DNA of 13,902 nt from a virus (Duplodnaviria > Heunggongvirae > Uroviricota > Caudoviricetes). The translations under genes and the position numbers were made by a program. The notes beneath the pieces are model-generated. The model was not told where the DNA came from. It did not search any database and saw nothing but the letters and a program-made list of their open reading frames with translations. Shown here piece after piece: positions 1,240-3,231 of the stretch; within the stretch, counting starts at the first letter, position 1, and each line of letters opens with the position of its first letter. The stretch is taken from the IMG/VR virus record IMGVR_UViG_2541047917_000005; one strand, written 5' to 3'.

Positions 1240-1658
1240 CAAATTACGGCTGTTTTTTCTTTAAGAGATTACAGCCGTGAATAGATCTTAGAATATCGGG
1301 GAATATCTGCAAATATCTTCTCTTTATATGTGTCAACTATCGAAAAAAATTGAAATGTCTTCTTCTGAGTTCTTATTCTCTGTTTCTTGATTGTTCCAAC
1401 ACCTGATGGTTTATCTATTTGTTTTTAATGATGTAATTCAGGTGTCATGCCAAATGACGACATTTTTTGTTGCGTCGCTTAAAAACTCGTGACACGATTT
1501 TAAACACTAACGAGCTTCTACGAACCTTAGCGAACAAAGCCTTTAGCAAGGTTGTGTTTTTAATTTAAGAGGTGAAAAAGAATCTAAGTAATATCCGATC
1601 TCATATATCTACAGCTAAGAGAAAAGTTTATATACGTAATTTTTATGTAGGTTTTTGT

Positions 1659-1868
1659 ATGCGTGAAATAAATGAAGATCGCGTAATCCGTGAGGATGAA
1701 TGTCGTAAGTTAACTGGAGTGTGCCGCACTACACGTTACGAACTGGAGAAAAAAGGGCGCTTTCCGTCACGTCTTAATCTGGGCGGTCGTTCTGTAGGGT
1801 GGCTGCTGTCCGAGGTTATGGAATGGGTTAAAAGCCGGGATCGCATTAATTCAGGTAAGGCAGTGTAA
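1659..1868 (+). CDS. alpA: AlpA-family helix-turn-helix transcriptional regulator
   Basis: 69-aa product MREINEDRVIREDECRKLTGVCRTTRYELEKKGRFPSRLNLGGRSVGWLLSEVMEWVKSR matches the AlpA/Phage_AlpA pattern (TG.srsTiY.l...G.FP..i.LG.rsVgW...Ev.eW). The ORF-track version starts at GTG 1572, which lies inside its own Shine-Dalgarno (aagaggtg) with no spacer; ATG 1659 gives the expected AlpA length. Confidence 0.8.
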   Translation: MREINEDRVIREDECRKLTGVCRTTRYELEKKGRFPSRLNLGGRSVGWLLSEVMEWVKSRDRINSGKAV

Positions 1869-1895
1869 AGGGGAGCATATGACACATAAAACAAA

Positions 1896-1915
1896 GGCGA
1901 CCGGGGGCGGTCGCC
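1896..1915 (-). terminator. Perfect 8-bp stem hairpin, terminator-like on the minus strand
   Basis: GGCGACCG-GGGG-CGGTCGCC at 1896-1915. On the minus strand it is followed by a T-rich run (TTTGTTTTAT, reverse complement of 1886-1895). On the plus strand it is followed by AATGGGAAAAC, which is not terminator-like. Confidence 0.4.
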
Positions 1916-2237
1916 AATGGGAAAACACTAAACATAAGCCCGAACATCATAGCGATTTGCTGGCTGGTGGGCAAATCCTGAGCGGTCCTGCAATTACAGG
2001 AACTACGGCATTGTCGCGGTTAGGTTGTGCTCAACTTTTTTTCACCTCTATATCGCAAGCGCGCCGTAATAAATCGCCTTTATCGCTTCCGCAAAGATCC
2101 TTTTTCTCGAAGCATGATTTTAAGAGAAAGGCGACGACAATTAATAAAACCGCACAGAGTTTCCAATTTATAAATTTTGACATCTTTTACCCCTATGATT
2201 GTCGCCATCGTTCTTCATGTTATGACGTGATTAATGA

Positions 2238-2417
2238 TTACTCGGATTCACTGGCCTTGCGCCGCTGGCGATATTCAACTTCTCGTTTTAATGCCGCAGT
2301 AACAAATTGCCCCGTACTTTCTCCAGGCATTTTTACCGCCTCAACATTGTTCATAACTTCATGCGGAACCCTTGCCGCAACGGTTTGTGATTTTGCGTTT
2401 ACTGCTTTTGTCGCCAT
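2238..2417 (-). CDS. Putative ribbon-helix-helix (CopG/Arc-like) DNA-binding protein; 59 aa, below the ORF-track length cut-off
   Basis: Hand translation of the minus strand: MATKAVNAKSQTVAARVPHEVMNNVEAVKMPGESTGQFVTAALKREVEYRQRRKASESE. Pattern of beta-strand (QTVAARVP), helix (HEVMNNVEAV), Gly turn, helix (FVTAALKREVEY) fits an RHH fold. GAGGGG Shine-Dalgarno lies about 10 nt upstream of the ATG at 2417. Palindromic operator-like repeats sit 50-100 bp upstream of it. The plus-strand frame over the same bases gives a compositionally implausible peptide. Confidence 0.45.
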   Translation of the reverse strand: MATKAVNAKSQTVAARVPHEVMNNVEAVKMPGESTGQFVTAALKREVEYRQRRKASESE

Positions 2418-2467
2418 GTTGTGTACCCCTCATAAAAAACAAATGCAGTATGCAGGAAAAAAAATAA

Positions 2468-2520
2468 GTGTTCAACACTTGACGTGTTCAACACCTGAGT
2501 TTAAATTGGTGTTCAACACC
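2468..2520. promoter_or_regulatory. Three perfect copies of the 11-bp palindrome GTGTTCAACAC overlapping a sigma70-like promoter (operator array)
   Basis: Exact copies at 2468-2478, 2484-2494 and 2509-2519; each is a dyad (GTGTT-C-AACAC). TTGACG (2479-2484) and TAAATT (2502-2507) are spaced 17 bp, so two copies bracket the -35 and the third lies just downstream of the -10. The region is divergent between the minus-strand RHH ORF and the plus-strand Icd-like start at 2617. Confidence 0.5.
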
Positions 2521-2616
2521 TTGTTGGCGCAAGGTGCAGAAACGACGAAACCCGGCAGTGAGCTAACACTAACCGGGCTTCTAACCACCAACGATAGAAA
2601 GCGTATCGAGGTAGCT

Positions 2617-3231
2617 ATGTTAAATCATACCACACACCCGCAAGGGCGGGATTCGCACAACCTGAATAAATACATCTGGCGTTTTATCGCCCTGAGCACG
2701 GCACAACCGCGCGTGATTACCATCGAGGCCACCAGCGAACAGGAAGCACGCCAGAAAAACCAGTTGATCGCCACTGCCAGCCAGGGCTATGATTTACCCG
2801 CACCAGCAAAATCTGGTGCCGGGATTGGCGTCCTGGAAATGTCAAAGGCGATATATGACGCGCCAGCGTCTTTTTTATCGTCCGCATTCGCTCACATCAA
2901 AGTTATGGTGGGCTGGGCGGGGGCTTCTTCGGAAGCGCCGGTTCCCTTTGACGCCGGTTACGCCAACCCCGTTCAGTCCACCGCCAGCGAAATTGGCGTT
3001 TCCTGCGGTGGAAATTCTTCACTGTCAAAGGAGGCTGCCAACATGGCTACTATCCCTACCCTCGTACATTCTCAAACTGCCTTTATCTGGCGCTTTATCA
3101 TCTTTGGCGCGTCAGAATCTCAAATCGTCCACGTAACCGCCTGGACGGAAGGCGAAGCGCGTAACCGTTGCCCGTCCGGTTGTGTCGCTGTATTCGCCGC
3201 CCGTATTCGTCAGGGGGTGAGTCATGCATAA
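2617..3231 (+). CDS. Icd-like (host cell division inhibitor-like) protein with two tandem Icd-like domains in one frame
   Basis: ATG 2617 preceded by GAGG (2608-2611). Two related segments: NKYIWRFIALSTAQPRVITIEATSEQEARQ and QTAFIWRFIIFGASESQIVHVTAWTEGEARN..AVFAARIRQGV, recognised from memory as the Icd-like family of P4-like islands. No stop codon separates the two copies. The stop-free frame actually extends from 1879, but that upstream part is judged non-coding. Confidence 0.5.
   Translation: MLNHTTHPQGRDSHNLNKYIWRFIALSTAQPRVITIEATSEQEARQKNQLIATASQGYDLPAPAKSGAGIGVLEMSKAIYDAPASFLSSAFAHIKVMVGWAGASSEAPVPFDAGYANPVQSTASEIGVSCGGNSSLSKEAANMATIPTLVHSQTAFIWRFIIFGASESQIVHVTAWTEGEARNRCPSGCVAVFAARIRQGVSHA
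3043..3231 (+). CDS. Second Icd-like copy as a possible independent cistron (alternative to the 2617 start)
   Basis: Near-consensus Shine-Dalgarno AAGGAGG (3028-3034) 8 nt before ATG 3043. 62-aa product MATIPTLVHSQTAFIWRFIIFGASESQIVHVTAWTEGEARNRCPSGCVAVFAARIRQGVSHA has a typical Icd-like size. Confidence 0.45.
   Translation: MATIPTLVHSQTAFIWRFIIFGASESQIVHVTAWTEGEARNRCPSGCVAVFAARIRQGVSHA

Follow-up and report, generated by a model that had tools for sequence, protein, structure and literature searches.

A candidate ribbon-helix-helix repressor with three operator sites at the replication promoter of a capsid-forming PICI

We have analysed, by computation throughout, a 13,902-nt stretch of viral DNA, referred to below as the window, and conclude that a 59-aa gene on its minus strand, ylcI, probably encodes an autoregulated ribbon-helix-helix (RHH) repressor of the rightward promoter P_R, that the specificity of this repressor may be exchangeable, and that it is probably bypassed by AlpA-driven transcription at induction. 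This inferred function is new for the protein family, which is known and uncharacterised, and the switch itself is of a well-known kind. Judged from its sequence, the window belongs to the capsid-forming PICIs, with genes for integrase, AlpA, D5 primase, SSB, capsid, protease, portal, connectors, HNH and TerL. The control region has the following features:

2238-2417, minus strand: ylcI-like gene for a 59-aa predicted ribbon-helix-helix protein, candidate repressor
2426-2431, minus strand: Shine-Dalgarno sequence GAGGGG, 8 nt before the ylcI ATG, read off the sequence
2447-2452, minus strand: putative -10 (CATACT) of the ylcI promoter; almost every related locus has (C/T)ATACT at this position
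2470-2475, minus strand: putative -35 (TTGAAC) of the ylcI promoter, inside O1 and 17 bp from CATACT
2468-2478, no strand: operator O1, GTGTTCAACAC, at position -61, which is specific to the window's type
2479-2507, plus strand: P_R, consisting of TTGACG (2479-2484), 17 nt and TAAATT (2502-2507), from the consensus scan; TTGAC is kept in relatives
2484-2494, no strand: operator O2, equivalent to conserved site B (-77, 30 loci)
2509-2519, no strand: operator O3, beginning 2 nt past the -10 and equivalent to conserved site A (-99 to -103)

The earlier note on this DNA, which was made from the letters alone, had reported three exact copies of a palindrome, and these were readily confirmed: the window contains GTGTTCAACAC at 2468, 2484 and 2509 only, and shuffled sequences held a mean of 0.01 copies, with three copies reached in 0 of 200 shuffles. 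Each copy is a 5+1+5 palindrome in which the central base is unpaired. The placement that the note had given these sites, around a -35 and after a -10, also stood, for the promoter scan independently called TTGACG, a 17-nt spacer and TAAATT on the plus strand. From the called elements and the site coordinates it follows that O1 abuts the -35 of P_R, O2 fills its spacer and O3 covers its predicted start. Repeated sites that overlap the -35, -10 and +1 of a controlled promoter are expected of a repressor-operator switch, and here their positions are conserved in 30 loci. The ORF is indeed divergent from the operon that had been named as its neighbour, which consists of the Icd-like, DUF4222 and D5 primase genes. 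The ylcI promoter is a putative one that the consensus scan did not call (8 of 12 matches at the -10); O1 covers its -35, and relatives carry a site just past the conserved TATACT.

The 59-aa ORF, with an ATG start, lies exactly where it had been described on the minus strand. It had been taken to be unannotated, and in public data this is not so, because RefSeq already annotates close copies: near-identical ones are named 'YlcI/YnfO family protein'. Against the corresponding family, NCBIfam NF041551, the 59-aa protein scored 59.6 bits with residues 9-50 covered, and as the curated cut-off is 30 bits, it is a member. No function is reported for any member of the YlcI/YnfO family in the databases and literature that we searched. 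We found 74 ylcI homologues, in Enterobacterales, and the family is a small one, since only 80 clusters at 50% identity match it among 1.84 billion representative proteins. A tblastn search of 50,697 phage records (P4 included) with the 59-aa protein yielded no relative, and the idea that helper phages carry a competing ylcI homologue was dropped on this result.

It had been allowed in the earlier note that the plus-strand frame, rather than the minus-strand ORF, might be the one under selection. Among close relatives, we observed that the ylcI frame is favoured. When substitutions were sorted by their effect in the ylcI frame and in the antisense frame, those synonymous in ylcI and non-synonymous antisense stood at 1.54x expectation (58 changes) and those non-synonymous in ylcI and synonymous antisense at 0.14x (8 changes), which is ~11-fold in favour of ylcI. 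Because of these substitution classes, we regard the minus-strand protein as the frame under amino-acid selection; on such comparative grounds, the 59-aa ORF is a real gene.

The RHH-like pattern claimed for this protein was checked by HMM and by structure prediction, and it held for the predicted fold and failed as a sequence-family match. In an alignment of 45 sequences, M1, T3, N7, S10, H19, G32, E33, S34, Q37, F38, E46 and R50 were invariant, and residues 11-15 formed the most variable stretch. AF2, used with the 45 sequences and a single chain, predicted an extended segment (1-18) and helices at 19-28 and 35-58 with a pLDDT of 86, that is, the strand followed by two helices of the RHH superfamily; the predicted structure is like those of solved RHH proteins, and the protein would consist of an RHH domain and a short basic tail only. 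Pfam gave no RHH, Arc or CopG match at E <= 1, hhalign gave a probability of 4.5% for YlcI versus Arc, and Foldseek found no match to the 59-aa protein in the PDB. Other leads were set aside: PDB sequence searches, with the single protein or with a profile, returned noise only (DNA polymerase beta and designed cages), the sole Pfam match, Med10, was sub-threshold, and in PHROGs YlcI matched only families of unknown function. Because the Foldseek, Pfam and PDB sequence searches were empty, our prediction that YlcI is an RHH protein is based on its predicted fold, its G-E-S turn and its register with Arc, and not on sequence-family membership.

We compared the window with related loci, 35 of them from a scan of species-representative genomes and seven from E. 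coli genome records; ~30 were usable for site mapping. Gene order in these loci is int, alpA, an optional cargo gene, ylcI on the opposite strand, the control region, the Icd-like ORF and primase. The three-site layout recurs in ~30 related islands, with sites at the promoter spacer, at the start site and at ylcI's own promoter. Relative to the ylcI start, the sites are found at -99 to -103, at -77 beside the conserved TTGAC, and at -32; the last of these, in most relatives, follows directly on a conserved TATACT and falls on the start site of ylcI, and in the window's type it is replaced by the site at -61. Copies of the site are alike within one locus and different between loci, as follows for the residues at positions 12 and 14 of YlcI:

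Residues T/A: half-site GTGTT
Residues K/E: half-sites GTGTC and GTGGC
Residues R/D: half-site GTGTC
Residues S or A/K: half-sites GTGTG and GTGGG
Residues K/Q: half-site GTGGA
Residues K/S: half-sites CTGGC and CTGGG
Residues S/T: half-sites GTGTA and GTGTC

The outer GTG..CAC of the sites and R16 of the protein are nearly constant. Residue 14 and base 5 pair as Ala with T, Glu or Asp with C, Lys with G, and Gln with A, which would fit ordinary side-chain and base preferences. In these loci, which are not mutually independent, the site sequence varies with residues 12 and 14 of the strand predicted to read the DNA, and we regard the patterns of co-variation as strong circumstantial evidence for binding, to which co-inheritance contributes. 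On this basis, T12/A14 proteins should go with GTGTTGAACAC and K12/E14 proteins, which are of the O157 type, with GTGTCAGCCAC. AlpA was also considered as a binder of the repeats, and was rejected since site type is uncoupled from it: the AlpA proteins of the window and the O157 island are 95% identical, yet the sites are different, and those of the Xenorhabdus and O157 islands are about 41-45% identical, yet strand residues and sites are the same.

The ylcI-operator cassette is present in the prototype EcCICFT073 and in the O157:H7 capsid-forming island beside cspD, which is of EcCIEDL933 type, and both have three matching sites in the majority layout (third at -32). It was found in 509 of 5426 complete E. 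coli genomes (9%), with up to 6 matching places per genome. In E. coli RM10466 (locus L038, 2504-5359), the cassette has a new site type, GTGTAAGACAC, and a RepA-helicase module replaces the D5 primase; because the cassette is here joined to a RepA helicase instead, it appears to move as a unit. Homologues of ylcI were also found with no Int or AlpA match nearby, in Enterobacteriaceae RIT693 and Cedecea neteri (L004 and L005). In these, the three-site layout is missing and the antisense frame is broken by two stops, so that the open antisense frame described below is absent where the satellite context is absent.

To the other side of ylcI, the following features lead back to alpA:

1572-1868, plus strand: alpA (Pfam Phage_AlpA, E = 2e-16), for which a RefSeq-style start is probably near 1659
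1879-3231, plus strand: stop-free eta-like ORF of 450 codons, open from 1798, its ATG at 1879 being 11 nt past the alpA stop
1896-1915, minus strand only: G+C-rich, terminator-like hairpin with T-run, right after the alpA stop, which would end the ylcI transcript before alpA
2031-2183, minus strand: 50-aa hydrophobic ORF (orf50) downstream of ylcI, variable cargo with no family match

The orf50 product has one hydrophobic helix, WKLCAVLLIVVAFLL. In relatives, the slot downstream of ylcI holds various small genes or is empty, and orf50 is probably cargo that is expressed together with the repressor. An Rfam int-alpA RNA motif (RF02996) lies between int and alpA in loci L003, L007, L012 and L016; at the gathering threshold, none was reported for the window.

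The eta-like ORF shares its frame with the Icd-like ORF and lies antisense to orf50 and ylcI, extending over the operators and both promoters. Its ATG at 1879 is preceded by a Shine-Dalgarno sequence, AGGGGAG, and a similar motif stands at the first in-frame ATG in about two-thirds of the loci examined. In 25 of 29 loci, all operator types included, no stop interrupts the frame between a point just past alpA and the close of the Icd-like ORF, a stretch that takes in the cargo, ylcI, both promoters and the leader. Within the 195 nt upstream of ylcI it is without a stop in 24 of 29 loci, against 2-12 stops in each of the other two frames, and dinucleotide shuffles of this stretch were open in 1-4% of trials per locus. 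We considered that openness might be a by-product of YlcI composition; synonymous resampling (P(open) 0.1-0.76 per locus) showed that composition explains the ylcI part weakly, and the explanation fails for the intergenic part (P 0.01-0.04 per locus). The eta-like peptide is not conserved as a protein, and across ylcI it is Cys/Ser-rich and only the mirror image of ylcI. In P4, the Icd-like frame is open from within vis across P_LE. The account of Forti et al. 1999 given in PMC10111431 describes P4 eta as coupled to the alpA homologue and holding a constitutive internal promoter, and its translation as preventing termination. Since P4 shows the same arrangement, with a start beside the alpA stop, a promoter inside the ORF and a common frame with an Icd/Kil-like end, the long ORF of the window is best read as a probable counterpart of eta, with its translation predicted. 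The antisense nesting of the repressor gene inside this ORF is an unusual feature.

The hairpin at 1896-1915 is conserved in sequence in several genera and reads 'KTKA..GR' in the plus frame, and from alpA to 2857 the plus strand has no predicted terminator. With the hairpin acting on the minus strand only, it follows that transcription from alpA can invade ylcI, and not the reverse.

Downstream of P_R we noted these features:

2551-2577, plus strand: conserved hairpin in the P_R leader, with 9 pairs, 8 of them with compensatory changes, in 19 loci
2617-3231, plus strand: first ORF after P_R (Icd-like; NF033153, 85 bits), with Shine-Dalgarno sequence GAGG and an ATG that is aligned across loci
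2800-2876, plus strand: isrK / P4 seqA-like RNA (Rfam RF01394, 75 bits)
2901-2988, plus strand: C4 / P4 CI-like immunity RNA (Rfam RF01695, 82 bits)

Directly after the leader hairpin, at 2578-2600, is a conserved C-rich, G-poor tract, CTTCTAACCACCAACG, which may serve for Rho loading or as a boxA-like element; read on the minus strand, the hairpin precedes a T-rich run. In the Icd-like ORF, an Icd-like motif occurs twice, as YIWRFIAL... close to the N terminus and as the full domain at the C-terminal end. PGAP starts its 'Icd-like protein' upstream of P_R, at an ATG that overlaps the ylcI start (CATG; 2416-2418, or 3931 in L001); for P_R transcripts, the aligned ATG with its Shine-Dalgarno sequence at 2617 is the likelier start. 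A Pfam Phage_ASH match (aa 61-152 of the Icd-like ORF, nt 2797-3072) coincides with both RNAs, and for this reason the Phage_ASH family may in large part represent RNA genes that have been translated. The C4/CI-like and isrK/seqA-like RNAs occur in the window's cassette type only and are absent from the CFT073 and O157 islands. Because they are so limited, the RHH module appears to be the more general control layer.

We propose that the 59-aa protein acts as an RHH dimer on the three 11-bp palindromes and would hold the replication genes silent in the resident island. P_R, which is internal to the eta-like ORF and would be the counterpart of P4 P_LE, would drive the Icd-like gene, DUF4222 and primase. 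Given the location of O2 in the spacer and of O3 on the start site, binding would shut P_R, and given the overlap of O1 with the -35 of the ylcI promoter, negative autoregulation would be expected. As residues 12 and 14 would set the inner half-site bases that are read, many orthogonal 'immunity' types could exist. At induction, the repressor is probably not inactivated; the helper would activate alpA and transcription would be driven from upstream, and the resulting transcript, translated continuously in the eta-like frame and antisense over ylcI and the operators, would reach the replication genes despite the repressor. Bypass rather than inactivation is suggested by the conserved absence of stops on the way from alpA over the cassette. 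A more far-reaching proposal, which we put forward tentatively and which falls short of being likely, is a gene-within-gene switch in which an exchangeable RHH cassette, with at least 8 specificities set by residues 12/14, would keep the internal early promoter off and give satellites mutual immunity, and in which AlpA-coupled translation of the eta-like ORF, stop-free and with no fixed sequence, would pass antisense over the repressor gene and its operators, override and silence the repressor and shield the transcript from Rho- and CI-RNA-dependent termination. If true, this would explain why Gram-negative PICIs look activator-driven and still carry a repressor.

AlpA is described as the activator in Gram-negative PICIs, and a global repressor has been called 'unclear' (PMC6092414); Fillol-Salom et al. 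2018 left open both the existence of such a repressor and the reason for an activator here versus a repressor in Gram-positive PICIs (PMC6092414). In the literature searched, the ylcI cassette gene is not discussed, and no repressor is described for EcCICFT073 or for islands of EcCIEDL933 type, which are the E. coli examples studied most. The cassette now offers a named gene, three defined sites and predicted specificity residues. Its many orthogonal types could be useful parts for engineered satellites, and may explain the coexistence of several satellites in one genome, where up to 6 matching places were counted.

Five other readings of the cassette are, in our judgement, less likely than an autoregulated repressor of P_R. 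YlcI could be a master repressor like Stl, from which a helper-phage protein lifts repression by binding, as the primary induction signal. Divergence from the replication operon, operators on both promoters and the 'unclear' status of the Gram-negative global repressor (PMC6092414) would suit such a role. We nevertheless think it unlikely: a protein of 59 aa is predicted to be RHH domain and short basic tail only, the stop-free path from alpA over the cassette favours bypass, and AlpA overexpression alone induces EcCICFT073 and EcCIEDL933, in which alpA mutants are dead (PMC6092414; 10.1101/2022.09.08.507074; 10.1101/2025.02.11.637232). The same publications bear on the earlier note, which had seen here a repressor-controlled promoter and a master switch: site layout, fold and co-variation agree with the first, and the second seems unlikely, AlpA being published as necessary and sufficient for induction. 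A Cro-like feedback regulator, made after induction and damping P_R rather than keeping quiescence, would also be served by the operator layout, and the sequence is silent on timing. However, ylcI has a promoter of its own and points away from the early operon, and since upstream-driven transcription runs antisense to it, it would be expressed least after induction; this reading seems to us somewhat less probable again than the Stl-like one.

The repeats might also be bound by some other protein (AlpA, a replication initiator or a host factor), with ylcI a mere neighbour, for short repeats close to satellite replication genes can be iterons. This we judge improbable, as site type follows the RHH strand residues and is uncoupled from AlpA, the L038 cassette adjoins a RepA helicase and not a D5 primase, and the sites fall exactly on -35, -10 and +1 elements. 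An RHH antitoxin with the small hydrophobic ORF downstream as its toxin would call for a conserved toxin gene directly downstream, as in type II systems; instead, the content of this slot varies, with no gene in the O157 island or in Xenorhabdus loci (alpA ~230 nt past the ylcI stop), and what is conserved beside ylcI is the divergent promoter and not a downstream gene; we consider the antitoxin very improbable. Least credible of all is that the long plus-strand ORF is the sole real gene and the 59-aa ORF its antisense shadow. In its favour, 25 of 29 loci keep the plus frame free of stops over the region, and PGAP starts its Icd-like protein at the ATG overlapping the ylcI start, but the ~11-fold difference in substitution classes is for ylcI, the Cys/Ser-rich antisense peptide is conserved only as a mirror image, and it is the ylcI frame that folds confidently as RHH and matches a curated family.

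The P_R repressor proposed here may be compared with several known systems. YlcI (DLP12) and YnfO (Qin) of E. coli K-12 belong to the same family, NF041551, as the window protein, which has 21% identity with K-12 YlcI, over 38 aa only. The K-12 gene is divergent from nohD, and the 390 bp that precede it contain no site of the GTG-n5-CAC type; its context is different, and nothing was gained from it as a functional clue. In P22 immI, Mnt and Arc are RHH repressors of the ant promoter, with no detectable sequence-family link to YlcI; there, one operator of 17-21 bp is used and an antirepressor is controlled, whereas the window has three 11-bp palindromes and a replication operon. Stl is a much larger protein than YlcI, with a different DNA-binding fold. 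SaPI Stl and Rpr of Gram-positive PICIs, like YlcI, are encoded between the modules for integration and replication and diverge from the replication operon (PMC6092414). Stl, however, is encoded on the int strand and loses its activity on binding a helper protein (PMC6092414); in the window, int and alpA are on the plus strand and ylcI is on the minus strand. P1/P7 immI (c4 RNA, icd, ant) and Gifsy-1 isrK resemble the window in that C4 and isrK models match just upstream of the Icd-like domain (PMC4825925), and differ from it in that these RNAs, found in the window's cassette type only, form a layer separate from the RHH protein.

The left operon of P4 (P_LL, vis, eta/kil, P_LE, CI RNA, alpha) shares with the window an AlpA/Vis homologue upstream and primase downstream, a long coupled ORF with an internal promoter and in frame with an Icd-like end (PMC10111431), and CI-like and seqA-like RNAs, which appear in the window as the C4 and isrK matches. 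In contrast, P4 has no ylcI relative by tblastn and no gene annotated between vis and the internal promoter, and its P_LE is described as constitutive (PMC10111431), whereas the internal promoter of the window has three operators and, in comparison with P4, a repressor gene, in many loci together with a cargo gene, lies antisense inside the eta-like ORF.
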